From NCBI GenBank assembly GCA_026387965.1, contig JAPLKR010000116.1, forward strand, positions 1 to 47,504: a stretch of DNA of 47,504 bases, written 5' to 3'. A model generated the notes under the pieces. That model was not told the DNA's origin and did not search any database. It saw nothing but the letters and a program-made list of their open reading frames with translations. A program made the position numbers and the translations under genes. Source of the DNA: Fusobacteriota bacterium (lineage in GTDB: Bacteria > Fusobacteriota > Fusobacteriia > JAPLKR01). Below, piece after piece: positions 21,699 to 41,790 of the stretch (within the stretch, counting starts at the first letter, position 1; the number at the start of each line of letters is the position of its first letter).

Positions 21699-21820
21699 GT
21701 GTCTGATGAAAATCTGTTAAAAGCTAAGGTGAAAACAGTAGATTTAAGTCGACTTTTGGTCAGTGTCAAAAAGAAATGTTGGTTTATTCTTAATGGTATT
21801 TTCAGATTTTAGATAGGAAT
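21699..21820. repeat. Inverted-repeat element family B
   Basis: GTCTGATGAAAATCTG...CAGATTTTAGATAGG; interior aligns with 22642-22730. Confidence 0.75.
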
Positions 21821-21886
21821 GAAAAAATGTGTAAGGAATGGGTCCTGCAACTTCGTGTAGGGTTACATTTTATTTAGGAGTGGAAA

Positions 21887-22285
21887 ATGGAATTAAAAGA
21901 TATACGTTGGAGACAACGGTTTGATAATTTTGAGCGTTCTTATGTGTTATTAAAGGAATATTTGGAGATTCATGCGCCCTCCAAGATAGAACGTGCCGGT
22001 GGCGTTCAATATTTTGAGATATGTTTTGAACTTTCTTGGAAGATGTTAAAAGATTATCTTGAGTTTCAGGGGTTGATTGTAAACTCACCTAGGGAAGCGA
22101 TTAAGCAATCGTTTCAAAATGGAATTATTCAACAGGGAGATATTTGGTTAAAGGCGTTAGAGGATAGAAATTTAACGACGCATACGTATGATGAGACTAA
22201 AGCAAGTCAGTTAGATGATAAAATTCATGGAGAATATTTTCAAATACTCAAGACGTTATATGAATTTTTTAAGGAGAAAAGGTAG
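21887..22285 (+). CDS. HEPN-domain protein (HI0074-like nucleotidyltransferase substrate-binding subunit), putative toxin
   Basis: RWRQRF, FEICFELSWK, SPRE, RNLTTHTY (R-X4-H). Confidence 0.9.
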   Translation: MELKDIRWRQRFDNFERSYVLLKEYLEIHAPSKIERAGGVQYFEICFELSWKMLKDYLEFQGLIVNSPREAIKQSFQNGIIQQGDIWLKALEDRNLTTHTYDETKASQLDDKIHGEYFQILKTLYEFFKEKR

Positions 22286-22581
22286 TGTTTGGGCTAGAAG
22301 CAGAGGATATAGAGACAATAAAAAAAGTGCTGTATAAATTTCCGGAGGTAGAAAAGGCTTTTGTGTTTGGCAGTCGAGCACTTGGAAACTATAAAAAAGG
22401 TTCGGATGTTGATATTGCATTGATTGCTAAAGATGATATAGCGGAAAGTGTGACGAGAATTTCTTATAAATTAAATGAGGAGTCTTATTTGCCTTATTAT
22501 TTTGATATTGTGGAATACAGAGCTATTGAAAATACAGAGTTAAAGCAACATATAGATGAGCATGGTATAAGAATTATTTGA
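22285..22581 (+). CDS. Minimal nucleotidyltransferase (MNT), putative antitoxin
   Basis: FGSRALGNYKKGSDVDIA (GS-X10-DXD); overlaps the HEPN stop by 1 nt. Confidence 0.9.
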   Translation: MFGLEAEDIETIKKVLYKFPEVEKAFVFGSRALGNYKKGSDVDIALIAKDDIAESVTRISYKLNEESYLPYYFDIVEYRAIENTELKQHIDEHGIRII

Positions 22582-22641
22582 GATTGACAAGATTGACGCT
22601 GATCCATAGAGGGCGCGAATAAAAGAGTCAGCGCGGTATTT

Positions 22642-22934
22642 GAACCTGACTAAAATCTGTTAAGAGCAAAGAAGAGAAAAGTAGCTTTAAGTCGTCTTTG
22701 GTCACCGTAAAAAAGGGCGTTGGATTATTCTATAGCAAATTTCCAATTACTTTGTACTATAGTCATCCCGCATTTATTTGCGAAGTAAAGCGAAGTCACA
22801 GGATCCATTCATTTGAATTCTGCAACGCTACTAAAAGCAATAGATTCTGCAATTTCATGCAGAATGATTTATGAGTTCACTCCTTTTGCCAATCTGCTAT
22901 AAACGGTAAGAGTATTCAGATTTTAAACAGGCTC
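22642..22934. repeat. Family B element containing a nested insertion
   Basis: GAACCTGACTAAAATCTG...CAGATTTTAAACAGGCTC terminal inverted repeats. Confidence 0.8.
22731..22901. mobile_element. TATAG-ended MITE-like element (family A architecture) nested in family B
   Basis: TATAGCAAATTTCCAA...TTGCCAATCTGCTATA; internal GTCATCC..GGATCC and AGATTCTGC..GCAGAATGA palindromes; absent from the sister copy at 21699-21820. Confidence 0.75.
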
Positions 22935-22995
22935 GAAAAAAGATTTGAACCGTGTCTACGCCGTAGCGAAATAATGAAATTTGAAAGGAAGTAGT

Positions 22996-24264
22996 ATGAG
23001 TGATATAGCCATAAAGGTTGAAAACCTCACTAAAATATATAAGCTGTATAATCAGCCCATCGACCGTCTCAAGGAGGTTATTGATCCACGCAGAAAGAAG
23101 TATCATAAGGACTTTCATGCCCTTAACGATGTGAGTTTTGAGATTAAAAAGGGTGAAACTGTGGGAATTATTGGGAAAAATGGTGCAGGAAAAAGTACAC
23201 TTCTTAAAATTCTAACAGGGGTGTTGACACCGACACGTGGAGATCTTGAAATTAATGGTAGAATATCTTCGCTTTTGGAGCTGGGTGCGGGGTTTAATCC
23301 TGAATATACGGGACTAAAAAATATCTATTTACAAGGGACGATTTTTGGTTATTCTGAAGAGGAAATGAAGCAAAAACTGGGTTCTATTTTAGAGTTTGCG
23401 GATATTGGTGAGTTTATTCATCAACCTTATAAGATGTATTCGTCAGGGATGGCTGCACGAGTGGCTTTTGCTACGGCAATTCATGTTGAGCCAGAGATAC
23501 TGATTGTAGATGAGGCATTGAGTGTTGGAGATGTTGCTTTTCAAAATAAGTGTATTCGAAAAATGGTATCGATGATGGGAACAGGAGTAACAGTTCTTTT
23601 TGTTAGTCATGATATTCAAGCAATAAAAAAGTTTTGTACAAAAGCGATATGGCTTAGAGATGGACAAAAAATTATGGATGGAGTTACAGAAGATGTAACT
23701 AATGCCTATATGTCTTATTCTTCGTATGGATTAGAAACACAATTTAATAAAGATACCGAGAATGTACCTGAAAAAAAATACTATCAAATGGAGTTTAAGT
23801 CAAAATTTGGTACAGGAGAGGCAGAGTATCTGTTTGTTTCTTTTTTTGATGAAAGTTATAACGAAACAAAAGTCTTAGTTCAAGGAAATAAATATTGTTT
23901 TAAAGCTTTAGTTAAAGTGAGCGAGAGAGATATTTGTGATATCGCAAGCGGACTAACATTTATCGATAGACTTAATAATAATATTTTGACTTTGAATTCA
24001 TATATGTACCACAATCCACTTGATAGAGCAATAAAACAAAGTTGTTTTGAAATTAATTTTGAATTTATGATGCCGAAAATAGCGCCAGGGGAATATGTGA
24101 TAGATGTGGCATTAGCAGAGGGGACTCAAATAGTTCATCAACAACTATGTTGGATTAATTCAGCCTTAATTATAAATGTTATTTCTAATGATAGTATTGA
24201 GGCTGGAAGCTTTTATACCATACCATTTGAACAAGTAAAAATAAATTACAAACTGGAGGTTTAA
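22996..24264 (+). CDS. wzt: Glycan ABC exporter ATPase with C-terminal Wzt_C domain
   Basis: GKNGAGKST, YSSGM, DEALSVGD, VSH; ~170 aa C-terminal extension with PGEY. Confidence 0.93.
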   Translation: MSDIAIKVENLTKIYKLYNQPIDRLKEVIDPRRKKYHKDFHALNDVSFEIKKGETVGIIGKNGAGKSTLLKILTGVLTPTRGDLEINGRISSLLELGAGFNPEYTGLKNIYLQGTIFGYSEEEMKQKLGSILEFADIGEFIHQPYKMYSSGMAARVAFATAIHVEPEILIVDEALSVGDVAFQNKCIRKMVSMMGTGVTVLFVSHDIQAIKKFCTKAIWLRDGQKIMDGVTEDVTNAYMSYSSYGLETQFNKDTENVPEKKYYQMEFKSKFGTGEAEYLFVSFFDESYNETKVLVQGNKYCFKALVKVSERDICDIASGLTFIDRLNNNILTLNSYMYHNPLDRAIKQSCFEINFEFMMPKIAPGEYVIDVALAEGTQIVHQQLCWINSALIINVISNDSIEAGSFYTIPFEQVKINYKLEV

Positions 24265-24272
24265 AGATAAAA

Positions 24273-25076
24273 ATGGCACATAACGAACAAAGAGAGTTTT
24301 GTATGCAAGTAAAAAAAAATTTTCCTCAATATTTTAAAAATTCTACGGTACTTGATATTGGGTCTTTAGATATTAATGGAAGTAATCAAGCATTATTTGA
24401 AACTTGTGTTTATTTTGGAGTAGATATTGGCGATGGAAGAAATGTGGATATTATTTCAAAAGGTCATGAGTTAGCATTGGAAGGCGCTACGTTTGATGTG
24501 ATTATTTCTACTGAATGTTTCGAACATGATATGTATTATAAAGAAACGTTAAATAATATTTATAGAATGCTGAAGCCAGGAGGGTTGTTGATTTTTACGT
24601 GTGCAACAACAGGTAGACCAGAGCATGGGACTAAAAGAACAGAGACTGTTCAAGATGCACCATTACTTTCTAATTTTTCAGAGTGGAGTGATTATTACAA
24701 AAATCTTACTGAAGCTGATATTCGAGAGGTAATGGATTGTGAGAAGTTATTTAGTGAATTTTTGTTTGATACTAATATAAAATCATTTGATTTATATTTT
24801 TGTGGTATTAAAAATAGCGTAGTAGAAAACATTGCTCAAAATAATGGCATTATTCCAAATGAAGTACTTTTTGAAAAGATTCGTAAAAGAAGCCATGAAT
24901 ATAATAAAATTCGAGAACAAGAAAATGAGTTGGGTGAAAAAATTCTAGAAATCCAAAAAAAAGCAGAAGAGAATCGTATTAAATCCCAAGAGCTTACCAA
25001 CATCTATAATAGCAAGAGTTGGAAGGTGTCGCAGTTCATGCTGAATGTGGCGAGAAAGCTGAAAGTGGTGAAGTAG
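24273..25076 (+). CDS. Class I SAM methyltransferase with coiled-coil tail
   Basis: VLDIGS, FDVIISTECFEH, LKPGG; charged heptad region then NSKSWK. Confidence 0.85.
   Translation: MAHNEQREFCMQVKKNFPQYFKNSTVLDIGSLDINGSNQALFETCVYFGVDIGDGRNVDIISKGHELALEGATFDVIISTECFEHDMYYKETLNNIYRMLKPGGLLIFTCATTGRPEHGTKRTETVQDAPLLSNFSEWSDYYKNLTEADIREVMDCEKLFSEFLFDTNIKSFDLYFCGIKNSVVENIAQNNGIIPNEVLFEKIRKRSHEYNKIREQENELGEKILEIQKKAEENRIKSQELTNIYNSKSWKVSQFMLNVARKLKVVK
24999..25076 (+). repeat. 78-bp direct repeat, copy 1 (3' end of the methyltransferase)
   Basis: 73/78 identical to 26700-26777. Confidence 0.95.
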
Positions 25077-25085
25077 GGGGGGCAG

Positions 25086-25511
25086 TTGAGGAAATTGAAA
25101 AAGAAGAGAGTAAAAAAAGGAAATATAATATCAGGGGAAAATTCAATTGCTATTATTGGCGGAGATATTATAGGTGATGATTACGATATTGAAGTATCTA
25201 ATAATTCACTACTACAAGTTGGGGGTAATATTATTGGTAGAGTAACAATGCCCTCATGTGAAGTCAAAGAAAATTCTCACCTTATTGTGAAGAATGATTT
25301 TAAGTATGAAACACATTTAGAAGCAATATATAAGGATGAAAGTTTTCGCAATTTGCCAGCTCCGATTCAAGCTAAAATTATTAGAGAATTGATGAGACCA
25401 AGTGGGGATAAGATGGAAACCATAAGTACGATTCTATCAACATTAAATAATAGTGCGGAATTGACTAATAATGTGTTTGAATTATTAAGACGCATTGGAG
25501 TGATAAAGTAG
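25086..25511 (+). CDS. Hypothetical protein with three short beta-type repeats
   Basis: 141-aa ORF behind a G-rich RBS; no family recognised; start uncertain. Confidence 0.6.
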   Translation: MRKLKKKRVKKGNIISGENSIAIIGGDIIGDDYDIEVSNNSLLQVGGNIIGRVTMPSCEVKENSHLIVKNDFKYETHLEAIYKDESFRNLPAPIQAKIIRELMRPSGDKMETISTILSTLNNSAELTNNVFELLRRIGVIK

Positions 25512-25676
25512 ATTATATGTGTTACCAAAAACATATTACTACATTATTCTATATAGGAGATATTTGACATCATGTTTGAGTTCTTATATCAACACTTAGA
25601 TTTAATTAAAATTGTAATCAAAAATTAAAATTATAAATCGAGATATTAGTTAATAATTATATTGGAAGGAAGAGTA

Positions 25677-26777
25677 ATGGATAATAATAGAGAATCTGAT
25701 TTTATACTTCTCAATCGAGGCGATGATCTCAGTTTGAAATATAGAGAAAGTGCTGATTGTGTTTTAAAAATTCCATTTGAGTTTCCAATGTTAAATACTA
25801 AATATAGTATTGCTGTAGTAATTCATATTTTCTATGTAGATTTAATTGTTGAAATTCAAGACTATCTTAATAACATTCTATTTGATTTTGATATATATAT
25901 TTCAACGGACACATTACAAAAAAAGATATATATTGAAAATCAATTTATGAAATTCAATAAAAGAGTTGAGGTCAGAGTATTTCCAAATCGAGGAAGAGAT
26001 ATTGCGCCATTTGTTGTAGGATTTCGAGATGTCATTGAGCAATATAAATATATATTGCACATACATACGAAAAAATCTTTAACACATCCACAAGCTTCTG
26101 AGTGGAGAAAATATTTGTTTGATAGATTATTAGGGAGCCCAGAAATTATAAGAAGTATTTTTTTATTATTAGAACATAAAGAAATCGGTATGGTATTTCC
26201 AGATCACTATCCTTTTCTTAAGCCGTTCATTAGCTGGGGCGGTAATTATGATTTGTCAAAAGAGGAACTTAAGAGGGTTAATTTTAATCTTTCATTGAGT
26301 AATAGAGTTGAATTTCCTTCTGGATCAATGTTTTGGGCTAAAACAGAAGCATTAAAAGAATTGTTTAAACAAAATTACGAGTGGGATAGTTTTCCGGGGG
26401 AGCAAGGACAGATTAATGGGACATTAGCTCATTCTATTGAAAGAACTTTTTTGTATTATGTTGAACTATCACAAAGAAAATGGATAAAAGTAGATATTGA
26501 TTGTGGAAGAGTTGTTAATTCAATAGAAGATTGTAGTGAAATAATCCAAGGATTACCAAGTATATTAAGTTATCATCCTGAACAGTTTGAAAAATTAGTC
26601 AACGATTTATGTATAAAACAATCTAATCGATTGATTAACTTAATGCAAGAAGTTGAAATTATTTCTAATGAGCGAGATTATAATAAAGAAATTATTGAAA
26701 ACATCTATAATAGCAAGAGTTGGAAGTTGTCGCAGTTCATGCTGAATGTGGCGAAAAAGCTGAGAGTGGTGGAGTAA
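25677..26777 (+). CDS. Rhamnan synthesis F (RgpF-like) protein
   Basis: HIFY, NRGRDIAPF, HIHTKKS, FPSGSMFW, GTLAHSIER. Confidence 0.88.
   Translation: MDNNRESDFILLNRGDDLSLKYRESADCVLKIPFEFPMLNTKYSIAVVIHIFYVDLIVEIQDYLNNILFDFDIYISTDTLQKKIYIENQFMKFNKRVEVRVFPNRGRDIAPFVVGFRDVIEQYKYILHIHTKKSLTHPQASEWRKYLFDRLLGSPEIIRSIFLLLEHKEIGMVFPDHYPFLKPFISWGGNYDLSKEELKRVNFNLSLSNRVEFPSGSMFWAKTEALKELFKQNYEWDSFPGEQGQINGTLAHSIERTFLYYVELSQRKWIKVDIDCGRVVNSIEDCSEIIQGLPSILSYHPEQFEKLVNDLCIKQSNRLINLMQEVEIISNERDYNKEIIENIYNSKSWKLSQFMLNVAKKLRVVE
26700..26777 (+). repeat. 78-bp direct repeat, copy 2 (3' end of the RgpF-like gene)
   Basis: 73/78 identical to 24999-25076. Confidence 0.95.
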
Positions 26778-26805
26778 TATTTTATCCTAAAAAAGAGGAG
26801 TAAGA

Positions 26806-28098
26806 ATGAATTTAGATGTATTTAATCAAGGATTTAAAGTATTCCGCGAAGAGGGGTTAAAAGCTCTTATTCAAAAAGCAAAGATTTTTTGCATTAACAA
26901 ACGAAATGAAAATAGTAGTAAAGAAAAAACAGCTTCAGATTTAATAAACAATCGTTTTAGAAATATTCAAAAAATACCAAGTTTTTTTTGTCCAACAAAC
27001 GATGGAAAGAGAATTAATTTAGTAACAGATAGTATAGAAAGCCATAGTTTATTAGGAGGTGTTGCAACAGCAATAATATTTGCAACCATGCTCTCGAAGC
27101 AATGGCAAGTGCCACTCAGAGTGATAACTCGGACAACCCCTCCCAATGCTCGAAACTTCAAGAAAATATTATCGTTGCTCAGTATTGATATCCCGAATAA
27201 TATTGAGTTTTATTCGGATTATGATCGCGATTTTTTTGGAGATAAAGTAAATAAACTAGATGTCCACGAAGAAGATATTTTTATTGCAACTTCATGGTGG
27301 AGTGCTGAAGCGATACGTAAAACGACTATCAAAAAAGAGTTTATTTATATCATACAGGAAGTTGAACAATTTTTTTATGATTATGGTGATGAACATTTGT
27401 TGTGCTCACAGTTAATGAAAGAAAAAGATATTATTTTTATTGTAAATTCAAAATGGTTATATGATTATTTTACTATGAATGAAAAAAATATTGCAGAAAA
27501 TGGAGTCTATTTTCATCCTTCTTTTTCAAATTCCTTATTTACCCCAATATTTGAAAAAAGAAAAGAAAAATATCAGTTGTTTTTTTATGCAAGGCCAAAC
27601 AATTCCAGAAATTTATTTTATTATGGAGTAAATGTAATCAATAGGGCAATCAATGAAGGAATAATAGATATAAGTGAATGGGATATTAATTTTGTAGGTC
27701 AAGGAGTTCCAGAGTTTACTTTTGATAATGGATATAAATGTAATATTATAGGACAGTTAGAATGGAAAGAGTATGCTAAGTTTTTAGAGTCTATTGATTT
27801 AGCTATTTCCTTAATGTATACACCACACCCAAGTTATCCTCCATTTGATGTTTTGATGGCAGGAGGTGTTGTATTGACGAACCGTTTTATGAATAAACAG
27901 GAAATTGACTGGTCTAAAAATGTGATATTATCAGAATTAAACGAAGAAGATATGATGAAAAATATTAAAATTTCTGTTGAGATGGCAAAAAATTCTCAAA
28001 TTAGAAAGAGTAATTTTGAGGAATCTCAAATTCCTCAAAATTGGACATTATCGTTTGTTGAGTCAATAAAATACTGTGAGGACAGATTAAATGTATAA
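26806..28098 (+). CDS. WsaF-like GT-B rhamnosyltransferase
   Basis: GGVATA, IATSWWSA, YIIQEVE, FYARP, SLMYTPHPSYPP. Confidence 0.75.
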   Translation: MNLDVFNQGFKVFREEGLKALIQKAKIFCINKRNENSSKEKTASDLINNRFRNIQKIPSFFCPTNDGKRINLVTDSIESHSLLGGVATAIIFATMLSKQWQVPLRVITRTTPPNARNFKKILSLLSIDIPNNIEFYSDYDRDFFGDKVNKLDVHEEDIFIATSWWSAEAIRKTTIKKEFIYIIQEVEQFFYDYGDEHLLCSQLMKEKDIIFIVNSKWLYDYFTMNEKNIAENGVYFHPSFSNSLFTPIFEKRKEKYQLFFYARPNNSRNLFYYGVNVINRAINEGIIDISEWDINFVGQGVPEFTFDNGYKCNIIGQLEWKEYAKFLESIDLAISLMYTPHPSYPPFDVLMAGGVVLTNRFMNKQEIDWSKNVILSELNEEDMMKNIKISVEMAKNSQIRKSNFEESQIPQNWTLSFVESIKYCEDRLNV

Positions 28099-29290
28099 TA
28101 TTATTAAAAAAAAATATAGTTTGATTAATTCAATTCCTTGGGAAATGTCGTTTGAAGAACGCTTAAATTTTTTGATGAAATTTTCAAAACAGTATAAATT
28201 AATGGTACATATTTATGAAAAAGCAGATACCTCTACATTTCGATATCGTTGTTATAATATTTATCAACTATTATTAAAAAGTGAGACGTGGAGATCAATA
28301 TATTTTTTTGACAATGAAGTTAACAAGATATTGGCATATCTTGATATCATTGATGTAGTAACAATTGTAAGAGCAAGATTTTCACTTAATATTCTAGAGT
28401 TAATAGGAAGAGTAAAAGCGAAAAAAATACCTCTTGTATTTGATGTAGATGACTTAGTTTTTGATCTCAAAAAATTACCATTGCTTACAAATACTTTGAA
28501 TGTTCGACTTAAAAATCATGTAGAGTATGATTTTTGGTTTGCGTACATAGGGAGAATTTCGTTAGTAGGAGAATATGCAGATTATTGTACAACGACCAAT
28601 GAATTTTTAGCAGAACGGTTAATGAAAAAATATAATAAACCGACGCACATTATTCCTAATGGGTTAAATCATGAGCAAATTCAAATTTCACAAGAGTGCC
28701 TTAGTTATAAAAAGAATGATAAAACAAATCAGAACTTCTGCATTGGGTATTTCAGTGGAACACCATCGCATATAAATGATTTTTTATCAGTTTCAGATGA
28801 AATAGAAATGCTCTTGAATGAATTTGAAAATATCACACTAAAAATTGTTGGTTTTATGGAGATTCCGGAAAAATTATTATATCTAGTTAAGTCAAAAAAA
28901 ATTATTCAAGAACCTCTTCAAAATTTTATTGATTTACAAAAAAAAATAGCAGAAGTTGATGTAAATATTGTCCCACTTGTCAACAATGAATTTACGAATT
29001 GTAAATCGGAATTAAAATACTTTGAGGCCGCCATCGTTCATACAATAACGTGTGCTTCTCCGACTTATATGTTTGTAAATAATATTACGCAAAGTGAAAC
29101 GGGTTTTATTTGTAAGCCAGGTGAATGGTATGAAACAATAAAGAAAATCTATTCTTTGAGTTTTTCTGAAAGAAAGGAAATTGCTGAAAATTCATACCAA
29201 TACTGTTTAAAAAAATATTCCGGCTCAGATGTTATTAAAAATATTGAAAAAGTTTATGATGAGATAGTAATGGAGGGGAATGAAGAATAA
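28091..29290 (+). CDS. GT-B (GT4-like) glycosyltransferase
   Basis: RYRC, FDVDDLVF, GYFSGTPSH, KSELKYFEA. Confidence 0.85.
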   Translation: MYNIIKKKYSLINSIPWEMSFEERLNFLMKFSKQYKLMVHIYEKADTSTFRYRCYNIYQLLLKSETWRSIYFFDNEVNKILAYLDIIDVVTIVRARFSLNILELIGRVKAKKIPLVFDVDDLVFDLKKLPLLTNTLNVRLKNHVEYDFWFAYIGRISLVGEYADYCTTTNEFLAERLMKKYNKPTHIIPNGLNHEQIQISQECLSYKKNDKTNQNFCIGYFSGTPSHINDFLSVSDEIEMLLNEFENITLKIVGFMEIPEKLLYLVKSKKIIQEPLQNFIDLQKKIAEVDVNIVPLVNNEFTNCKSELKYFEAAIVHTITCASPTYMFVNNITQSETGFICKPGEWYETIKKIYSLSFSERKEIAENSYQYCLKKYSGSDVIKNIEKVYDEIVMEGNEE

Positions 29291-30233: not shown

Positions 30234-30234
30234 A

Positions 30235-31260: not shown

Positions 31261-31299
31261 TTGCTGAGTAGATGGCAAAAATATTCTCAAGCTCTCGAT

Positions 31300-31710
31300 G
31301 ATCTCAGTGGTGAAAGTGTTTTATTAGTGGAAATTCGCATTAAATGTTTAGGGTTTGGATACAAACGGTATGTGTTTGTAGGAACGAAAAGAGAGTGAAA
31401 ATCCATTTTCTGTGTATTTGGTGTATTCTGTGGCAAAATGCTTTCCATTTTGCGTGTAAGGAATGGATACTGCAACTAGACAGATTTAAAATTAAGTTGC
31501 CCCATAGTTTGTATCGACTGCTTAGTGGAGCGTGCAAAGTTTTTACCTCACTATCGCCCCCTATTTTCAGGGAGGATATTAGATTTGCGTCAGAATTTAG
31601 TCTGCGTCGAGAAGAACCTGATTTTACTCTTAACGGTAAGGTGTTTCAGATTTACATCAGGCTCGAAAAAAAGGTATAACTGTGTCTACATAATAGCCGT
31701 GGCAGAAAAT
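31300..31710 (+). repeat. Mosaic repeat block upstream of rhuM-fic (direct-repeat core 31479-31586, family B right end at 31647)
   Basis: 31479-31540 is 56/62 identical to 33018-33079; 31302-31337 resembles 32881-32915. Confidence 0.85.
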
Positions 31711-31729
31711 TGATAAGGAAGGAGGGAAG

Positions 31730-32716
31730 ATGAAAGAGATTCAAATATATCAAAATGAAAATGGTATGGTGGAATAAGATGTAAATTTTGAAAAGGAAAC
31801 GGTATGGCTGACTCAAAGGCAAATGGGAATTCTTTTTAATCGAGATTATAAAACCATTTCTAAACATATCATAAAGATATACTCTGAAGGCGAATTAAAC
31901 AGAGAGGGAACTGTCTCAAAATTTGCGACAGTTCAAAATGAGGGTGACAGAGAGATTCGTCGTGAAATTGAGCACTATAATTTAGATGTGATTATCTCTG
32001 TTGGGTATCGAGTGAATTCAAAAGAGGGGACCAAATTTAGAATTTGGGCGACCAATGTTTTAAAAGAGTATCTTGTTCAAGGATACGTGATCAACCAAAA
32101 GTGCTTGAAAATGGAAAAGCAAAAAGTTGAAGAGCTGTATAAAACCATTCAACTGCTTGAAAGAACAGTAAGAAATCAAGCGGAAGAGTTGAGTGAAGCA
32201 CAAGAGTTAATAAAAATTGTCTCAGAATATAGTTATGCTTTATCACTTTTAGATGATTATGATCATCAGAGTGTTAAGATGGGAAGAACAACAGAATCTA
32301 CTTCATATCATTTAACGTATGCTGAGTCTATAAAACTGATTAACTCTATGAAAACAGAATTCTCATCTTCCCTTTTTGGCAATGAAAAAGATGAGTCATT
32401 TAAAGGAAGCTTGGGCGCACTATATCAAACGGCTTTTGGTGAAGAAGTATACAAGAGTGTGGAGGAAAAAGCAGTCCACCTGCCCTATTTTGTTGTGAAA
32501 AATCACTCATTTAGTGATGGAAATAAGCGAATAGCAGCGGCTCTTTTTACCTATTTTATGTATAAAAATGGAATATTGTATACACGAGAAGGCAAGAAGC
32601 GTATTGGCGATAACACACTTGTGGCAATGACACTCATGATAGCCGAGAGTAAATCTGAAGAGAAAGATATCATTACAAAAGTCCTAGTAAATTTAATTAA
32701 TGAAGATAATGAATAG
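31730..32716 (+). pseudogene. RhuM-Fic/Doc fusion with an in-frame TAA at codon 16
   Basis: ATG 31730 behind GGAGG reads MKEIQIYQNENGMVE*DVNFEKETVWLTQRQM in frame with the 31823 ORF; YNLDVIISVGYRVNS, FRIWA (RhuM) and HSFSDGNKR (Fic). Confidence 0.85.
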
Positions 32717-32879
32717 GGATGTAAATAGAATTACAATTATGAGACAGTTTGTTGCACAATTATTTCAAGTTCGGTGTAGATACAATAATGTCATTGTTTG
32801 AAAGTGAGAATATTTGCCACGGGATAAGGATGAATAAAAGTTGAATGGGTAGTAGGGTATGAAATAATATTGCTCAGCG

Positions 32880-33260
32880 TTCTCAGTGGTGCAAGGCTTT
32901 ATTCGTGGAGATTCGAAATTTATTTGTGCCAATTCGTGTCATATATTTAGGATTATCAGATTTTAGTCAGGTTGAAGATGCGTATTTAAGTATGGATAGT
33001 GCAACTACATGGATAATGACAGATTTAGAATTAAGTTGTCACATAGTTTGTGTCGACTGCTTAGTGGAGAGTGCAGAGTCTCTACCCCCTCTAACTTCCC
33101 CAATTCTCAGGAGAGGATATCAGATTTAAGTCGTCTTATAGTCCTTATCGATAAGTGTATGAGCAATGGATTCAGCGACTTCGTGCAAAATGTCCGAGTA
33201 GAGTGATTTCAATGTTATTTATTCCGTGGTGAATATTCTTTTATTTGCCTCAATTTGTGG
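32880..33260 (+). repeat. Mosaic repeat block downstream of rhuM-fic
   Basis: Direct repeat of parts of 31300-31600; family B motif CAGATTTTAGTCAGG at 32957. Confidence 0.85.
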
Positions 33261-33374
33261 CCAATAGGTCTTGATTTTGATATTTTTCTTGAAATTTAGC
33301 CTAATTCTTGTTATAGTGTAAGTAGTTATAATGTGTATGCGTGATAATGATAATCCTATGAGGAGAATGAGATA

Positions 33375-35171
33375 ATGGAAATAGTTAAAGAGAATAGAAA
33401 TCCGCTGAGATTTGTAAGTCCCAAGTGGTATTCACGCCAATTTAAAACCCTAATAAAGAGCCGTTCATATCAGTATTTCAAACCTTATTTGTGGCTATCA
33501 ATTATTAGTGTACTATTAATGACAGTGTATTCGGTGGCAAGTGGAGCCCCAACGTTAGTCATGAAGGAGCTCTTTAATGGTGTATTGGTTGGAAAAAATG
33601 TTAAGATGCTTATATGGGTAGTTGTTCTTATCATCGTTTCAACAGTGGTAAAAGATATAGCGAATTACTGCGGAAGTGTCATGCAGTCGTATATTTCAAC
33701 GCGTATTGCATATGACCTTAGAAAAGACCTTTACAATCATATGATAGATCTTCCAATGAGTTATTTTAAGAAGAATCAAACGGGAGATTTGATGTCAAGG
33801 TATACGACGGCAATTCCTGCATATCAAGGGTTTTTAGGAACAGCATTTTCGTTTATCAGTAAAATTATTCAGCTAATTGCTTATTTTGGAATTGCCATCT
33901 ATACCTCGTGGCAGTTGACAATATCTCTTATAATCCTTCTTCCAGTTATCTATGTGACGATGAAATACCTTGGAAAAAGATTATACAAGACAGGAAAAAA
34001 AATTCAGGAAGCGGCAGGAAGTATCAACAATTTTGTACAAGAGATGGTAAGTGGTGTGCAAGTGGTAAAAAGTTTTGCGGCCGAGGATTTTGAAAGAGAG
34101 AACTACGAGTATCAAAATCATCTAAATTTTGCAGTGAATTATAAAAACTCAAAGATTAATGCAAGAGTATCGCCTATTACAGATTCGGTAAACTCTATCG
34201 CGATTGTAGTACTGCTTCTTCTCGGAGGGTATTTTATTATACGTGGATGGATACAGAGTGGGAATTTTATCCAATTGGTTGTGGCACTTGGTCTTACGGC
34301 AACACCGATTAGATATATTTCTCAACAATATGGTGCACTTTTTACCAATATGGCTGGAGTAGAGAGGGTATTTGAGGTATTGGATGTAAAAAATGAGATT
34401 ACAGATAAAGAAGATGCAAAAATTCTTGAAAATCCAAAAGGAAAAGTAGAGATAAAAAATGCCTTTTTTAAATATGAACCGAATCAAGAGTGGATCATTA
34501 ATGATATCACCATTACGGCTAATCCGGGCGAGACAGTAGCACTAGTAGGAAAAAGTGGTGGGGGAAAATCAACACTGGTTAACCTACTTCCAAGATTTTA
34601 TGATATTGAAAAAGGGTCAATATGTGTGGATGGTGTAGATATTCGTGATTATACTCAAAAAAGTCTTCGTCAAAACATAGGGCTTGTTCCCCAAGATACA
34701 TTCCTATTCAGTGGTAGTATTCGTTCAAATATTGCTTATGGACTCGGAGATATACCTACGGAAAAGATTATTGAAGCGGCTAAAAATGCCAATGCTTGGG
34801 AGTTTATTGAAGGGCTGCCTGATGGGTTAGATACTGTGGTGGGTGAGCGTGGGACACGACTTTCTGGTGGACAAAAGCAGAGAATCTCTATTGCAAGGGC
34901 ACTACTTAAAAATCCTAAAATACTCATTTTAGATGAGGCCACCTCAGCACTCGATACTGAATCAGAGAAATTGGTACAAGATGCACTAGATAGATTGATG
35001 CAGTCACGAACGACTTTTGTAATCGCGCATAGACTTTCTACGATTATAGATGCAGATAAAATTGCTGTGATAAAAGGGGGAATACTCTTAGAGATGGGAA
35101 CACATAAGGAGTTATTGGCCAATAAAGGATACTATAAAGAGCTTTACGATCGTCAATTTAGAGACGAATAA
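33375..35171 (+). CDS. msbA: MsbA-like ABC half-transporter (probable lipid A-core flippase)
   Basis: Fused TMD and NBD; GKSGGGKST, LSGGQKQR, DEATSALD, IAHRLST; LPS context. Confidence 0.75.
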   Translation: MEIVKENRNPLRFVSPKWYSRQFKTLIKSRSYQYFKPYLWLSIISVLLMTVYSVASGAPTLVMKELFNGVLVGKNVKMLIWVVVLIIVSTVVKDIANYCGSVMQSYISTRIAYDLRKDLYNHMIDLPMSYFKKNQTGDLMSRYTTAIPAYQGFLGTAFSFISKIIQLIAYFGIAIYTSWQLTISLIILLPVIYVTMKYLGKRLYKTGKKIQEAAGSINNFVQEMVSGVQVVKSFAAEDFERENYEYQNHLNFAVNYKNSKINARVSPITDSVNSIAIVVLLLLGGYFIIRGWIQSGNFIQLVVALGLTATPIRYISQQYGALFTNMAGVERVFEVLDVKNEITDKEDAKILENPKGKVEIKNAFFKYEPNQEWIINDITITANPGETVALVGKSGGGKSTLVNLLPRFYDIEKGSICVDGVDIRDYTQKSLRQNIGLVPQDTFLFSGSIRSNIAYGLGDIPTEKIIEAAKNANAWEFIEGLPDGLDTVVGERGTRLSGGQKQRISIARALLKNPKILILDEATSALDTESEKLVQDALDRLMQSRTTFVIAHRLSTIIDADKIAVIKGGILLEMGTHKELLANKGYYKELYDRQFRDE

Positions 35172-35179
35172 TAGCTAAT

Positions 35180-35514: not shown

Positions 35515-35645
35515 AAGCGGGTTTAAGTCATCCTTTAGTCTGTGCCGAGCAAGAAAGTTTTGCTATTAATGGCATGATGTTTCAGATTTTAGACAGGGTC
35601 AAAAAAAGCTTTAAACCGTGCCTACGCAGTAGGCGTGGCGAGAAT
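35515..35645 (+). repeat. Family B right part plus conserved downstream extension
   Basis: TTTAAGTC..TTTAGTC..CAGATTTTAGACAGGGTC-AAAAAA..AACCGTGCCTACG, matching 22917-22975 and 31581-31710. Confidence 0.75.
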
Positions 35646-35665
35646 ATAAAGTATTAGGAGAAAAA

Positions 35666-36238: not shown

Positions 36239-36246
36239 ATAAGTTT

Positions 36247-36482
36247 GAGCCTGATTAAGATCACTATTTTTCCTCTCTTTGAAGAGAGGGTTGGGCGAGT
36301 TGTGTTTATAGCTTTATTAATTTCAAGGTAAAACACCACTCACCCTACACCTTCTCGCCAGCGAGAAGGAAATATCGACAGTTTAAATCGATCTATTTAC
36401 TAGATATTAAACAGGTTCTTAGAAAGCGTCATAATGAAGATATTTAAGAAGGTTCAGGTTTTAACAGATTTTTGTCAGGCTC
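36247..36482. repeat. Family B-type inverted repeats (36247-36418) around a CCTCTC/GAGAGG hairpin core, plus a second right end at 36465-36482
   Basis: GAGCCTGATTAAGATC...GATATTAAACAGGTTC; internal CCTCTCTT-tg-AAGAGAGG and CCTTCTCGC-ca-GCGAGAAGG hairpins. Confidence 0.7.
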
Positions 36483-36516
36483 AGAAAATGTTTTGATCTG
36501 TGTCGAAAGGAATAGA

Positions 36517-37368: not shown

Positions 37369-37472
37369 TTAGCCACTAACGAACATGGTAAAGAGATATT
37401 TTCAGGACAATATTGAGTAGTATGAGTATAATTTTGGCGTATATAGGAGATGATTTATGGTATAACCATGTC

Positions 37473-37609
37473 TATTGCAAATCATAAAAATACTGGATAT
37501 TTTTTGTATGGCATCTTGAGCCAAGTCGGGAGATCTATCTTTTAAATGAGTAGATGTCTCCGCCTTGGTCGACATGATATGACTCAAGATTTGTTTTAAA
37601 AATGCTATA
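37473..37609 (+). mobile_element. MITE-like repeat family A, copy 3
   Basis: TATTGCAAATC...TTGTTTTAAAAATGCTATA; near match to reverse complement of 8492-8629. Confidence 0.85.
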
Positions 37610-37652
37610 CGTAGTGGTCGTGGCAAATTTAATTATTCATTGGAGGAATGAA

Positions 37653-38849
37653 ATGAGATATTTAGTAACAGGTGCAGCTGGGTTTATCGGTGCAAATTAT
37701 CTGAAATATATTTTAAAAATGCATTCTAATTGTGAGGTGATAGTTCTTGATAAGCTAACCTATGCAGGGAATTTACTGACCATTCAAGAGGAATTGAAAG
37801 ATTCAAGAGTAAAATTTATTAAAGGTGATATTCAAAATAAAGAGTTGGTAGAGAATATTTTCATGCGACATGATATTGACTATGTGGTGAATTTTGCTGC
37901 AGAATCGCACGTGGATCGAAGTATTGAAAATCCTCAAATATTTTTGGAAACGAACATTTTAGGAACACAAAATTTACTGGATATGGCGAAAAAATTCTGG
38001 TCAATTGGAAAAGATGAAAAGGGATATCCGATTTTCAAGCAGGGTAAGAAATATTTGCAAGTTTCAACCGATGAAGTCTACGGAAGTCTAGAAAAAGACT
38101 GGGCAGTTGCTCAAGAGTTGATACTTAACGAGAGTGTCAGAAAAGTGATTAGTGGAAGAAAAACTCTGCCTACAGGGTATGGAGAGAGCTTTTTTACAGA
38201 AAACACCCCACTTTCACCAAGAAGCCCCTACTCTGCATCGAAAACGGCCGCCGATATGTTGGTAAAGGCGTACGAAGATACTTACCATATGCCAATCAGC
38301 ATTACCCGTTGTTCGAATAATTATGGGCCGTATCATTTTCCAGAAAAATTGATCCCACTTATGATTAAAAATGTGTTGGAAGGGAAAAAGCTTCCAGTGT
38401 ATGGAAAAGGAGATAATGTAAGAGATTGGCTCTATGTAAAGGACCATTGCAAAGGGATTGACTTAGTGCTTCACAAAGGCAGACTAGGGGAGGTCTATAA
38501 TATCGGAGGATTTAACGAAGAGCAAAATATTGAAATTGTAAAGCTTGTCATCTCAACCATTGCACGTATTATGAGAGACGAGCCACGCCATCAAAAAGTG
38601 TTAAAAACCGAGCTCTCCAATATTTCGGAGGGGCTTATCACATACGTTCAAGATAGATTAGGCCACGATGCGCGTTATGCCATTGATCCCACCAAAATTG
38701 TAACAGAGCTTGGTTGGTATCCTGAGACCCCATTTGTTGAGGGGATAGAGCAGACCATTCGATGGTATTTAGAAAATCAAGAGTGGGTAAATTCTGTGAC
38801 CAGTGGTGAGTATCAAAAATACTATGAGCAAATGTACCAAGGAAGCTAG
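37653..38849 (+). CDS. rmlB: dTDP-glucose 4,6-dehydratase
   Basis: TGAAGFIG, DKLTYAGN, AAESHVDRSI, STDEVYG, YSASK, RCSNNYGP. Confidence 0.96.
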   Translation: MRYLVTGAAGFIGANYLKYILKMHSNCEVIVLDKLTYAGNLLTIQEELKDSRVKFIKGDIQNKELVENIFMRHDIDYVVNFAAESHVDRSIENPQIFLETNILGTQNLLDMAKKFWSIGKDEKGYPIFKQGKKYLQVSTDEVYGSLEKDWAVAQELILNESVRKVISGRKTLPTGYGESFFTENTPLSPRSPYSASKTAADMLVKAYEDTYHMPISITRCSNNYGPYHFPEKLIPLMIKNVLEGKKLPVYGKGDNVRDWLYVKDHCKGIDLVLHKGRLGEVYNIGGFNEEQNIEIVKLVISTIARIMRDEPRHQKVLKTELSNISEGLITYVQDRLGHDARYAIDPTKIVTELGWYPETPFVEGIEQTIRWYLENQEWVNSVTSGEYQKYYEQMYQGS

Positions 38850-38881
38850 TTGAAAATAATATTAATGTTAAAAAAAATTGT

Positions 38882-38975
38882 GAGCATGATAAAAATCTGT
38901 AAGAGTTTGCTGAAAAAATAAAAAAAAGTACTTAATATTTTGCCGTGAGATGTTTAACCGATTTTAGTCAGGCTC
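38882..38975. repeat. Family B element (short complete copy)
   Basis: GAGCATGATAAAAATCTGT...ACCGATTTTAGTCAGGCTC. Confidence 0.75.
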
Positions 38976-38986
38976 GAAAATAATCA

Positions 38987-39020
38987 TAAAATCTCTCGCT
39001 TACATGAGAGATTTTTTTAT
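38987..39020 (+). terminator. Probable terminator after rmlB
   Basis: AAAATCTCTC-gcttacat-GAGAGATTTTTTT. Confidence 0.7.
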
Positions 39021-39078
39021 CGTAAAATACAAGTTTTGTGGTATAATAGAATTAAATATTACCATACTGGAGTAACAG

Positions 39079-40167
39079 ATGAAAGTATTAATAATACAGT
39101 TGAAAAGGATTGGGGATGTGCTGCTATCTACGCCGCTTGCCAATTCGATAAAAGAGAATTTTCCAGACTCCGAAATTGATTTTATCACTTCACCTGGAGA
39201 AACTGGGGTTGTTGAGGGAAATCCTAATATTTCAGAGATTATTGTGCTGACGAGTGAAGAACGAAAAAGCAAATTTAAATTTTTGAAAAAGATGCTGTAT
39301 ATCAGAAAGAAGAAGTATGATGTTGTCTTTAATGTGAATGGAAAATTAGAGGGAATGCTCATCACTTTTTTTTCTAGAGCCAAAAAGCGCGTTGGATGGG
39401 ATAAAAAAGGGTGGAAAATTGTGAATACCCTCTCAGTGGACAGCGAAAAATTTAGAAAAAAAACGGGAACGGCGGCCCAAACCATTGAGGACCGTTTAGC
39501 GATGTTGACAGCTACTTTTGGGGATATTAAGTTAGATAGTGAATTTCATATATGGCTCACCGATAAGGAGCTGGCAGATACCAAAGCACTCATGGAGAAA
39601 AGTGGCGTGGATTTTACCAAACCCATCGTTCCCCTAGGCATCACCAGTCGTCGTTGGTACCGTGTGTGGGAGTTTGAGAAGTTTGTGGCGATGTCACACT
39701 ATTTAATTGAAAAGTATGACGCTCAAATTATTCCCTTTTATGCTCCAAATGAAAAGGCATATATAGATGGCTATATTGAGGCGATGAAAAGTGAAAGCGT
39801 AAAGCGTGTTGAGACGAAAAATGTTCGAGAACTTGCCGCCATGATGCAACTATCAACTATTTATTTCGGAAATGAAAATGGCCCTCGTCATGTCGCTCAA
39901 GCGGTAGGCACACCAAGCTATGTGGTATTTAGAGATAATATATCCACACATTGGTTTTTACCAACAGACCATCCAATGCATAGAATTGTGACATATCAAA
40001 CGGCTTATAAACTAACAGATGAAGAGTTTCATGCTCTATTTACCCTCACTAAAGAGGAACTTTTTGCCAAATATGAGATATCGCTCGAATTTGTAAAGTC
40101 CGATTTTGACGAAATGGTTAAGGCGTTAGGAATATTAGAAAATAGGGAAGATAGGGGGGGAAATTGA
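39079..40167 (+). CDS. GT9 heptosyltransferase-like glycosyltransferase
   Basis: KRIGDVLL, NPNI, GNENGPRHVA; TGGTATAAT extended -10 upstream. Confidence 0.9.
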   Translation: MKVLIIQLKRIGDVLLSTPLANSIKENFPDSEIDFITSPGETGVVEGNPNISEIIVLTSEERKSKFKFLKKMLYIRKKKYDVVFNVNGKLEGMLITFFSRAKKRVGWDKKGWKIVNTLSVDSEKFRKKTGTAAQTIEDRLAMLTATFGDIKLDSEFHIWLTDKELADTKALMEKSGVDFTKPIVPLGITSRRWYRVWEFEKFVAMSHYLIEKYDAQIIPFYAPNEKAYIDGYIEAMKSESVKRVETKNVRELAAMMQLSTIYFGNENGPRHVAQAVGTPSYVVFRDNISTHWFLPTDHPMHRIVTYQTAYKLTDEEFHALFTLTKEELFAKYEISLEFVKSDFDEMVKALGILENREDRGGN

Positions 40168-40535
40168 ACAGTTCAATGATTGTTGAGAGGTTAAAAGAGT
40201 TTTCACCGGAAGTTATTTATATATTTGGATCAGTTGCTAAAGGAGAAGAGCGAAAAGGTAGCGATATTGATATCGCCTTCTATTCAAATTGTGAACAAAC
40301 AGCGTTGGGGATTTATACCGCGGCTCAAGAGTTGGCAATAAAATTAAATAGAGATGTGGATTTAGTGGATCTGAGGCGTGTTGGATCAGTGCTTCAAAAG
40401 GAAATTGTTGAACATGGAAAGGTTATTTTTGAAAAGTCAGCCAGTTTTCGCAGTGAAATGGAATTGAAAATCATTAAAAATTATGTTAAATTTTGTGAAG
40501 AGCGAAAATCCTTAATAGAAAATTTTGAGGTGTAA
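40164..40535 (+). CDS. mntA: MntA-like minimal nucleotidyltransferase antitoxin
   Basis: FGSVAKGEERKGSDIDIA (GS-X10-DXD), VDLVDL; start could be ATG 40176. Confidence 0.85.
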   Translation: MNSSMIVERLKEFSPEVIYIFGSVAKGEERKGSDIDIAFYSNCEQTALGIYTAAQELAIKLNRDVDLVDLRRVGSVLQKEIVEHGKVIFEKSASFRSEMELKIIKNYVKFCEERKSLIENFEV

Positions 40536-40536
40536 A

Positions 40537-40941
40537 ATGAGAGATGATATTATCATCAATAAGATAGAGATTATCAAAAGAAGCATTCAAAGAGTGGAAG
40601 AGGAGTATCAAAACACCCCTCAAAACCTTGAAAATTTTACGAAACAAGATGCGATTATTCTAAATGTACAAAGGGTGTGTGAAGCCTGTATTGCTATGGC
40701 TTTTCACTGTATAAAGGTGAATAAATGGGAGTTGCCTCAGGAGAGTCGTGAGGGTTTTAAAATTTTAGAAATTCACGGGGCGATTACCTCTGAGCTCTCA
40801 CTGTCACTACAAAAAATGGTGGAATTTAGAAATATTGCTGTTCATAATTATCAAAAATTAGACCGAAGTATTATTCAATACGTGATAGAGTGCACACTTT
40901 ACGACGCCTTGAAATTTTCCTATGTACTTCTTGAGAGATAA
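40537..40941 (+). CDS. hepT: HepT-like (DUF86) HEPN ribonuclease toxin
   Basis: QDAIILNVQR, FRNIAVHNY (R-X4-H-X-Y). Confidence 0.85.
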   Translation: MRDDIIINKIEIIKRSIQRVEEEYQNTPQNLENFTKQDAIILNVQRVCEACIAMAFHCIKVNKWELPQESREGFKILEIHGAITSELSLSLQKMVEFRNIAVHNYQKLDRSIIQYVIECTLYDALKFSYVLLER

Positions 40942-41086
40942 CAAGTTCGGGTTTTATTTGTTCTGGTAATTGTTAAAGAGCGTTTATTTAAATTCACTGT
41001 TCACCTTCGTTTCTAAAAAAAGGAAATAAGGAGATCCAGTTATTTACAATCAAAATATTTTAAAGATATTAAAGTAGGTTCTTATC

Positions 41087-41104
41087 CAGATTTTAGTCAG
41101 GCTT
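41087..41104 (+). repeat. Family B right end
   Basis: CAGATTTTAGTCAGGCTT. Confidence 0.7.
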
Positions 41105-41166
41105 AAAAAGGGTATATAAGGCGTTTTTAAGTAATTTAAAGCGATAAATTAGGGGAGAGAAAAATT

Positions 41167-41790
41167 ATGATTATTTACATCGATAATGTACTGCTGCAAA
41201 CAAAACTGCATAAAGTGGATACCTTAGAGAAAATTATTAAAAGCATAGAGAAACTCGTCATGAATAATGGGCGCGTAGTCACTGAAATATTAGTAGATGG
41301 AAAAAAGATACTGTTTGACTACGATGCGAAAGCACACAATATCCGAGAGCAGATTAGGTATCTAGAGTTTTATACTTCGGCACCAGAAGTGGTCCTGTTG
41401 GAAAATATTCAACATCTCAATGAACATCTAGATCAAGGTAAAGCCTCTTTTGAGCGCGCTTTATATTTTTTTAAAGAAGGCCTGCCCAAACGTGCATTTA
41501 AAATTATCTTGGCTGAACTGGATCGAATTGAGATGATAGTAGATACACTTGAAGCGGTATCAGCACTTTCGAAAACCATTCAAAAGTCGCCAGATTTTCA
41601 CCATATGGTTCATGAATTCAATCAAGCGATTGAAAGACTTCTCTATTTTTTACAATTAGAAGAAATGGAAAATTTAGTATATACCATACAAGTTGATTTA
41701 CTCAGTGTGGCAACGCTCATTTACGAGCAAATTGATTGTATGTATTATTCGGTACTAGATGATTTTCTTGATGAAAAGAGAGGTCAATAA
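41167..41790 (+). CDS. Hypothetical protein
   Basis: 207-aa ORF behind GGGGAG; stop overlaps the next start (TAATG); no family recognised. Confidence 0.8.
   Translation: MIIYIDNVLLQTKLHKVDTLEKIIKSIEKLVMNNGRVVTEILVDGKKILFDYDAKAHNIREQIRYLEFYTSAPEVVLLENIQHLNEHLDQGKASFERALYFFKEGLPKRAFKIILAELDRIEMIVDTLEAVSALSKTIQKSPDFHHMVHEFNQAIERLLYFLQLEEMENLVYTIQVDLLSVATLIYEQIDCMYYSVLDDFLDEKRGQ

Follow-up and report, generated by a model that had tools for sequence, protein, structure and literature searches.

A short inverted-repeat element in the surface-glycan locus of an uncultured Fusobacteriota lineage and its relation to a GxxExxY gene cassette

The intervening sequences (IVSs) of 23S rRNA carry a small open reading frame (ORF) in inverted arms within a transcribed and conserved unit, and the stem formed by the arms is cut out by RNase III. 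The Correia elements (CREE) of Neisseria and other miniature inverted-repeat transposable elements (MITEs) are short, end in terminal inverted repeats, lack a transposase and are intergenic, often lying just upstream of start codons. Intergenic mosaics of short modules are also well known, as in the NIMEs of Neisseria (dRS3/RS) and the BIMEs of Escherichia coli (REP plus other motifs). Here we describe a short repeat with features of all three, found in a 47,504-nt stretch of an uncultured freshwater Fusobacteriota bacterium (assembly GCA_026387965.1, contig JAPLKR010000116.1, positions 1 to 47,504), hereafter the window. A previous reading of the window from its letters (the original prediction) listed eight copies of an 18-nt motif, five of them 79-84 bp ahead of unrelated genes, and proposed that the motif might be a portable gene leader.

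We lean, with somewhat better than even confidence, towards a different interpretation, in which a small hairpin-type selfish cassette, specific to this lineage, has the motif as its terminal inverted-repeat arm (TGAGCCTGACTAAAATCTG ... CAGATTTTAGTCAGGCTCA). The complete form of this cassette would carry a GxxExxY gene, the copies in the locus would be decaying, gene-less and nested, and the constant spacing to start codons would be a by-product.

Compared with the described systems, the element resembles a 23S rRNA IVS in that inverted arms closely enclose a small ORF in a transcribed unit and are shared by gene-less copies. It differs in its host site, which is an intercistronic spacer of a lipopolysaccharide (LPS) operon and not rRNA, and excision by RNase III is here only supposed. 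Like CREE and MITEs, the element is short, bounded by inverted repeats, transposase-less and intergenic, and is likely to be co-transcribed as a long hairpin. Unlike them, it amounts to ~24 arms, shows a flanking duplication at one of five sites, yielded no cognate insertion sequence (IS) when one was sought and exists in a version with a nuclease-fold gene; the two are likened by features, not by sequence. With NIMEs and BIMEs it shares a small kit of modules in varying combinations, a position near surface-structure genes and a tie to gene gain and loss, whereas the modules themselves are different, the copies number tens and not hundreds, and there is no RAYT (the RAYT, or Y1 transposase, profile PF01797 had no match in the source assembly). 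The 22 copies found at up to 3 mismatches stand against the hundreds that characterize REP/REPIN sequences.

Two further comparisons are more distant. As in integron arrays (attC/IntI), a co-directional array has imperfect palindromes between small accessory genes, here of the HEPN/MNT and Fic kinds. However, the locus has no IntI, core housekeeping glycan genes lie between the repeats, there is no one conserved crossover site, and the inner arm ends CTGTTAAGAG do not form an attC core pair, as judged by eye against the consensus RYYYAAC / GTTRRRY. JUMPStart/ops (RfaH) sequences are likewise conserved and non-coding and lie in the leaders of long glycan operons, whereas the motif described here occurs in both orientations and after stop codons. 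The ops core consensus GGCGGTAG had no match in the window, and no specialised NusG paralogue was found in the source assembly, where PF02357 matched once, on contig C13. A search of the literature on miniature inverted repeats in Fusobacterium intergenic DNA found nothing relevant.

Anatomy and distribution of the repeat

The source assembly is a metagenome-assembled genome (MAG) of 1.79 Mb in 141 contigs, 95.5% complete, with 34% G+C; the window is its contig C9 and makes up 2.65% of the assembly. From ~3.5 to 41 kb of the window all genes lie on the + strand and belong to LPS core and O-antigen synthesis. They include GT9, GT2 and GT4 transferases, an O-antigen ligase, wzm/wzt, RgpF and WsaF rhamnan genes, an MsbA-like ABC exporter, rmlC, rmlD and rmlB. 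For comparison between species we used L017, a 20.8-kb metagenome contig that was the sole close relative returned by an RmlD metagenome scan. Its RmlD is 88% identical to that of the window in amino acids, its genes are ~82% identical in nucleotides, and synteny extends from the ABC exporter onward; L017 aside, the nearest relatives among the genomes compared share the class only, and none is closer. Strains were compared through contigs from four metagenome runs, X1, X2 and X3 among them.

All eight motif positions of the original prediction proved correct. Seven of them match the 18-mer CAGATTTTAGTCAGGCTC at up to 3 mismatches and the eighth, at 21803, has 5, as that reading had allowed. 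At the 3-mismatch limit there are 10 matches in the window against 0.04 expected, and none of 100 shuffles reached 10; the reversed motif, used as a control, gave 1 match against 30 for the true motif across the source assembly and L017. The motif forms the right arm in an element with inverted repeats whose outer ends read (T)GAGCC...GGCTC(A/G); TTT precedes the left arm and a run of A follows the right arm. The arm is one unique sequence of 18-20 nt and not a string of tandem 7-9-mers. The inverted upstream partner that had been claimed for complete copies was recovered as a reverse-complement arm at 22642 and 38882 and in degenerate form at 21699 and 36247. The window contains four arm pairs in all (21699/21803, 22642/22917, 36247/36465 and 38882/38958, with spans of 94-293 bp), and GAGCC/GGCTC face outward in all four as well as in all three pairs of L017. 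The pair past rmlB is kept in L017, where it holds a 150-nt nested insert. Other arms are solo: right arms start at 31647, 32957, 35583 and 41087, and left arms lie a few bases past stop codons at 7235 and, weakly, 8334.

A second module, which we call ext, consists of AACCGTG, a small variable palindrome and CCGTGGC. The source assembly has seven copies of ext, four of them in the window and the others ahead of galE (C83), sbcD (C46) and a methyltransferase gene (C47).

Throughout the source assembly the 18-mer occurs 22 times at up to 3 mismatches, and the share of the window, 10 copies, has a binomial P of 8e-11. An nhmmer profile of the arm added just two copies, for a total of ~24 arms. 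The motif is enriched in glycan loci: 12 of the 22 copies adjoin nucleotide-sugar or glycan genes on three contigs (the window with 10, C83 and C71), and two weaker copies (4 mismatches) lie beside a heptose epimerase gene on C98. The copies beyond the window are intergenic too, with left-type arms 8-48 nt past a stop codon on C5, C26, C41, C62 and C71 and right-type arms ahead of a start codon on C2, C32, C83, C88 and C98. Solo arms occur in both orientations relative to transcription, with no single orientation. A possible long element on C47 (12315-15382) was rejected, as its two 4-mismatch matches lie within coding sequence. On C98, a gene for a 161-aa membrane protein with no NCBIfam match (13632-14267) lies between the heptose epimerase and pilT-like genes; it is flanked by the two right-arm-like copies in direct orientation, 47 and 42 nt ahead of the respective start codons.

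The motif is restricted to this lineage. Among 40 other members of the class, one has a match, which is single and carries 2 mismatches, and the 18-mer, when sought in 185,579 species genomes, gave 19 single matches in unrelated taxa, which is the chance level. The arms of L017 are closer to the consensus (0, 0, 0, 0, 1, 2, 2 and 3 mismatches) than those of the window (1-5).

The GxxExxY gene cassette

L017 has eight arms in its 20.8 kb, four of them perfect. Between rmlC and rmlD, a pair of 20-nt arms with 100% complementarity (9521-9540 / 9947-9966) encloses an intact ORF of 124 aa, in the order arm, 24-nt leader with a Shine-Dalgarno (SD) sequence, ORF, 8 nt, arm. The ORF reads in the same direction as the operon and encodes a GxxExxY protein of the PD-(D/E)XK type (PF13366, 1e-39; TIGR04256, 8.5e-40). 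The same rmlC-rmlD site of the window is orthologous to this cassette, with arms around 196 nt of unrelated, gene-less repeat DNA, and gene-less copies with the same arm sequence are found there and at ~20 other sites of the source assembly. Arms are also orthologous between the window and L017 in the rmlB-GT9 spacer and upstream of a 207-aa gene.

The sole GxxExxY gene of the source assembly is on C71, in another glycan locus, between the genes for glucose-1-phosphate cytidylyltransferase and CDP-glucose 4,6-dehydratase. Words of the ATTCGTGG type, which also serve as mosaic modules in L017 and in the window, make up a 42-nt inverted pair around this gene. The downstream arm of the pair has CGTGGC at its end, 24 nt ahead of the next ATG, which is the same junction as that of ext. 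The family is present in 5 genomes of 81 class members, the source assembly included. Bracketing inverted arms of at least 20 nt, with 73-100% complementarity, were found around six of the eight Fusobacteriia GxxExxY genes examined (L017 and the source assembly counted), the weakest of these arms being no better than background pairs in the same output. In one other genus, two genomes have a single GATTTTAGTCAGCGTCAAAA each, 0.2 kb and 1.5 kb from the GxxExxY gene; being kin, they count as one observation, and one GxxExxY protein from this genus is 66% identical to that of L017. Little literature was found on GxxExxY / PDDEXK_3 (PF13366) by family name, and the present observations tie this orphan family to an inverted-repeat element.

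On this basis, we propose that the complete form of the element comprises an arm, a 24-nt leader, the 124-aa GxxExxY (PD-(D/E)XK) gene and a second arm. The copies in the LPS/O-antigen locus would then be gene-less hairpins and solo arms, nested with other short modules as an intergenic mosaic, and may derive from the gene-bearing cassette, which presumably is or was mobile. Spread within the locus could have occurred via recombination between repeat copies. A composite unit of fixed length, placed in originally minimal spacers, would end just upstream of the SD sequence, 22-27 nt ahead of the ATG, and the HEPN and rhuM genes would be accessory cassettes that either inserted immediately past a resident copy or came to be flanked by its duplicate. 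It is possible that the arm stem, if transcribed, is excised in the manner of a 23S rRNA IVS.

The same observations can be carried further. The arm pairs and ext may be the junction sites of an integrase-less cassette system in surface-glycan operons, in which small selfish genes (GxxExxY, HEPN/MNT, Fic) are inserted just upstream of a resident ribosome-binding site (RBS), the GxxExxY nuclease recognises the arms and mobilises the cassette, and the transcribed stem is cut from the mRNA as in an rRNA IVS. We regard this as speculative and improbable; if true, it would amount to a class of mobile element not described before, and a widespread family of orphan proteins would gain a function. Should the nuclease move the cassette, the element would be a new kind of mobile element, and should it not, an ordinary MITE-like mosaic.

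Spacing to start codons and gene content beside the repeat

The distances from the start of the motif to the next start codon given in the original prediction (84, 79, 83, 418, 83, 52, 121 and 80 nt) are exact in all eight cases, and an SD-like sequence lies directly upstream of each of the eight start codons. The extension said to be shared by three copies is real for those at 22917, 31647 and 35583, whose leaders resemble one another with z = 4.5-5.9. The leader of 21803 is a weaker match (z = 2.0-3.3), and that of 41087 has no similarity to the other leaders (z = 0.5-1.8). Homology among 22917, 31647 and 35583, and more weakly 21803, extends ~25-170 nt upstream and all the way downstream to the RBS. 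Four of the five copies with constant spacing are paralogues of one composite unit, made up of the arm, the A-run and then ext.

The 3' end of ext is 22-27 nt ahead of the ATG in all seven copies read in the source assembly (four were scripted, at 23-27 nt, and those at 31678, 22948 and 21841 were counted by hand). Right arms without ext stand 39-53 nt ahead of the start (on C32 and C88, two on C98, and at rmlD in both species). Outside the window, gene-facing copies are found at 102, 39, 47, 47, 42 and 140 nt, none of the six at 79-84 nt. Co-directional spacers have a median of 26 nt over 1141 gene pairs, and with genes this compact an insert that spares the SD sequence must therefore end ~15-30 nt ahead of the start. 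The finding of five of the eight distances within one 6-nt window has P = 0.00025 under a uniform null of 24-200 nt; once the four paralogous copies are treated as a single lineage, the agreement that is left, with 41087, is not notable (P = 0.49).

The constant spacing is thus explained by the paralogy of the composite unit together with compact operons, and need not be the sign of a dedicated leader, as had been proposed. What survives of the portable gene leader is that a repeated unit sits in the 5' leaders of several unrelated genes; a role in keeping the spacing is not supported. The genome-wide comparison of distance and orientation that had been suggested as a check, with distances that are not fixed, both orientations and short spacers, also goes against the leader. 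It should be noted that paralogous composite repeats in compact operons can yield constant repeat-to-start spacing without a regulatory leader.

Genes are gained and lost next to the unit, as had been anticipated: a strain in run X3 is without rhuM-fic, and L017 is without MNT/HepT and has the GxxExxY gene between arms. The X3 contig, which comes from a study other than that of the likely source sample, passes from 31703 to 33289 by way of 9 other letters (depth 6.4, side 132), and places the arm and ext directly ahead of the promoter of the ABC gene, an arrangement that is the same in L017. In the window, direct copies of upstream modules (177 nt at 74% and 69 nt at 88%) stand around the rhuM-fic block. 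HEPN-MNT, which splits wzm from wzt, was present in X1, X2 and X3, and the elements A and B around it are direct duplicates (88 nt at 78%). A short direct repeat of the GT9 3' end, imperfect in sequence, flanks the MNT/HepT pair. In L017 the interval from the ABC exporter to rmlC, which is empty of Fic genes in the window, contains two of them, and the 3 kb of repeats that precede its ABC gene include a gene for a MazF-type toxin.

Every one of the variable genes belongs to a small module of the selfish or defence type, set in the mosaic, and the junctions lie away from the motif. Their observed positions are past the second hairpin or 11 nt ahead of the motif, with none inside it, which argues against the recombination site at the motif that the original prediction had offered as one possibility. 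The O-antigen/LPS spacers of this lineage appear to be landing sites for small selfish genes, with a content that varies between strains and between sister species. Two details of these regions may be added. Codon 16 of the rhuM-fic gene is an in-frame TAA, the RhuM and Fic domains being otherwise intact. The repeat region of L017 (1-3190) consists of ~3 kb of mosaic repeats with a ~1.73-kb tandem duplication, and its MazF/PemK-type toxin gene is on the opposite strand. Coordinates of the features in the window are collected in Table 1.

Table 1. Arms, ext modules and associated genes in the window
Feature	Coordinates	Strand	Remarks
Solo left arm, 3 mismatches	7235..7252	-	6 nt past GT4 stop; 30 nt ahead of next start codon
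Element A, 122 bp	21699..21820	+	Degenerate left arm 21699-21716; right arm 21803-21820, 5 mismatches
ext hairpin variant	21841..21864	+	Ends 22 nt ahead of HEPN start codon
HEPN-type (NTase_sub_bind) and MNT nucleotidyltransferase pair	21887..22581	+	Between wzm and wzt; flanked by elements A and B
Element B, 293 bp	22642..22934	+	Left arm 22642-22659, right arm 22917-22934; other repeat modules nested inside
ext module, 3' half shortened	22948..22968	+	Ends 27 nt ahead of wzt start codon 22996
Solo right arm C, 3 mismatches	31647..31664	+	
ext hairpin C	31678..31703	+	3' end is left junction of strain-variable rhuM-fic block
rhuM-fic block	31704..33288	+	Gene 31730-32716; right arm 32957-32974 downstream; duplicated repeat modules
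Solo right arm E, 2 mismatches	35583..35600	+	
ext hairpin E, 10-pair stem	35614..35640	+	L017 homology resumes at its 3' end, 35634
Gene-less arm pair, rmlC-rmlD	36247..36482	+	Left arm 36247-36264, 4 mismatches; right arm 36465-36482, 1 mismatch
94-bp arm pair past rmlB	38882..38975	+	Followed by terminator-like hairpin 38988-39015 and promoter-like TGTGGTATAAT
MNT and HepT (HEPN) toxin-antitoxin pair	40145..41075	+	Ends 11 nt ahead of arm; absent from L017
Solo right arm H	41087..41104	+	80 nt ahead of start codon 41167; leader not ext-homologous; L017 orthologous arm at 79 nt

Alternative explanations and further observations

Several points weigh against reading the motif as the arm of a selfish cassette. 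The gene-bearing cassette of L017 is the only one with this arm type, the GxxExxY gene of the source assembly having different arms, and a tblastn search for GxxExxY remnants in the gene-less copies found none. Of five independent sites, only the rmlB-GT9 spacer has a flanking direct repeat that exceeds chance (10/11 in L017 and 7/8 in the window; repeats of at least 10 nt arose in 4 of 2000 random flank pairs). With the MAG 95.5% complete and in 141 contigs, a partner gene may be missing. The position of 12 of the 22 copies next to glycan or nucleotide-sugar genes could be explained by function, not tolerance. Five orthologous arms are identical at 82 of 90 bases between the species (hand count), against 0.27-0.67 at the four-fold sites of the flanking genes, and this conservation suggests constraint or homogenisation over plain junk. 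The four-fold values are 0.27-0.48 for the flanking genes and 0.67 for rmlB; leaders, a terminator and a promoter next to the arms are similarly conserved, and the arms are therefore unexceptional among alignable intergenic DNA. Finally, the ext stem covaries, with 3 compensatory pairs and a score of 0.198 against 0.062 in shuffles, none of 500 being as high. As ext in the source assembly always lies just ahead of an RBS, it may have a function of its own.

Such a function could be that of a cis-acting RNA leader, in which the ext hairpin, with or without the arm stem, processes, stabilises or controls the translation of the polycistronic glycan mRNA, and selection fixes the distance to the RBS. 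Besides the 3 covarying pairs in a stem that is 86% paired, with a covariation score above all 500 shuffles, this idea draws on the 22-27 nt between ext and the ATG in the seven copies of the source assembly, which include those at sbcD and the methyltransferase gene outside glycan loci. A strain difference, 21858 T>C, converts a G.U pair to G-C (stem read by eye), and arms are kept at orthologous sites. However, the leaders fold no more stably than shuffles (z = +1.5 to -2.2), the ext stem is absent from the minimum-energy fold of copy C, and the two invariant G.U pairs arise because the direct repeat CCGTGG pairs with itself through wobble, and hence are no evidence of selection on RNA. Six of the seven ext copies read in L017 (a strict pattern lists six of the seven) lie within repeat arrays, far from any RBS, and the arms occur in both orientations. 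Neither was there an Rfam match: with Rfam 15 at gathering thresholds only 5S rRNA and three tRNAs matched, and 20600-41300 searched at E up to 5 gave chance-level matches only. We consider an RNA leader unlikely.

It is distinctly unlikely that the element is an ordinary MITE derived from an IS and moved in trans by a transposase, with the L017 GxxExxY gene a mere passenger, as in a mobile insertion cassette. Terminal inverted repeats of the MITE kind are present in the four window and three L017 pairs, termini are TG...CA in 13 of 29 copies, sizes are 94-444 bp, there is one flanking direct repeat of 11 nt (10/11 matching), and the source assembly has 26 rve-type transposase matches. The assembly does encode DDE_Tnp_1 and rve transposases, but their ends differ from the motif, and the suggested look for a transposase between the same ends failed to link them. 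The resident rve-type IS ends are TATACCGCCCCA.../...GGGGCGATATA or others, and within 2 kb of 15 rve genes there was no motif-like end beyond chance-level 5-mismatch matches; moreover, the direct repeat is missing at four of five sites and the genome has ~24 arms only. Site-specific recombination, by an integrase-less or Xer-dependent system in which the arm pair or ext is an att-like site that captures toxin-antitoxin (TA) pairs, Fic and GxxExxY genes, has in our view a slim chance. The rhuM-fic block, missing in another strain, begins exactly at the ext 3' end (31703/31704), HEPN-MNT lies between two complete elements, L017 homology upstream of rmlC resumes at the ext 3' end, and each variable gene is of a kind known from integron arrays. 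Against this, an integron integrase is lacking: both tyrosine recombinases, which lie on other contigs, score best as XerD/XerC, whereas the integron integrase model TIGR02249 gives 105 bits against a cut-off of 265. One of the two is split by a stop, and the source assembly has no resolvase or invertase. At the second TA pair the boundaries are a short target duplication and not arms, the junctions vary from case to case, and flanking duplicates of 50-180 nt with 74-88% identity fit homologous recombination. Invertons might also come to mind, since in this surface-glycan locus the segments of 60-440 bp ahead of wzt, rmlD and GT9 lie between arm pairs; the arms would then be recombinase sites around promoter-bearing segments that phase-vary glycan genes. 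This is hardly credible, given that no strand-changing joint was seen among the joints listed in the four runs (contigs only), that there is no serine invertase and element B has no strong internal promoter, and that solo arms are frequent and one interior carries a gene co-directional with the operon. Of these readings, the decaying selfish cassette remains the one that we prefer.

Some smaller points touch the elements and enzymes considered above. The 26 rve matches represent at least two IS families, and many of them have stop codons or are situated at a contig end; the IS110 family gave one sub-threshold match only in the source assembly. Comparison by blastn of element B with plasmids and of element C with phages gave no match. 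The Xer-like tyrosine recombinase gene with an in-frame TAA is at 5792-6298 of C57. A resemblance of the inner arm end to dif or the XerD arm was dropped because it was inconsistent between copies. As a sigma-70 or sigma-54 promoter, the motif and ext were rejected by eye, the spacings being a misfit, and a scan gave no consistent site. The four-fold-site identity of rmlB (37602-38849 in the window, 10950-12197 in L017), 0.67 against 0.27-0.48 in its neighbours, suggests that this gene was exchanged more recently between the two lineages.

Other observations concern the glycan locus as a whole. Run X2 had almost no contig cover over ~23580-35070, whereas 21.6-23.6 kb and 35.1-41.4 kb were covered at 90-99% identity; it is probable that in the X2 strain the stretch from the conserved part of wzt to the end of the ABC exporter gene has been replaced by another O-antigen segment. 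Matches to RgpF (rhamnan synthesis) are spread over the separate ORFs 25662-26777, 29280-30233 and 30211-31260, one with the N-terminal half of the profile and two with the C-terminal half. The segments 24999-25075 and 26700-26776, which belong to a methyltransferase gene and an RgpF-like gene with identical last 25 residues, have 95% DNA identity over 77 nt, and it follows that the 3' end of a gene was duplicated. A second, unrelated family of intergenic repeats, palindromes of the type GTCATC..GAGCGAAG..GAGATCT, occurs at 591-730, 8489-8630, 37472-37609 and 46222-46366, and also at 20719-20755 and 44344-44380. Over 124 nt, its arms at 8492-8615 and 37486-37609 have 90% complementarity, and one copy is nested in the L017 arm pair past rmlB.

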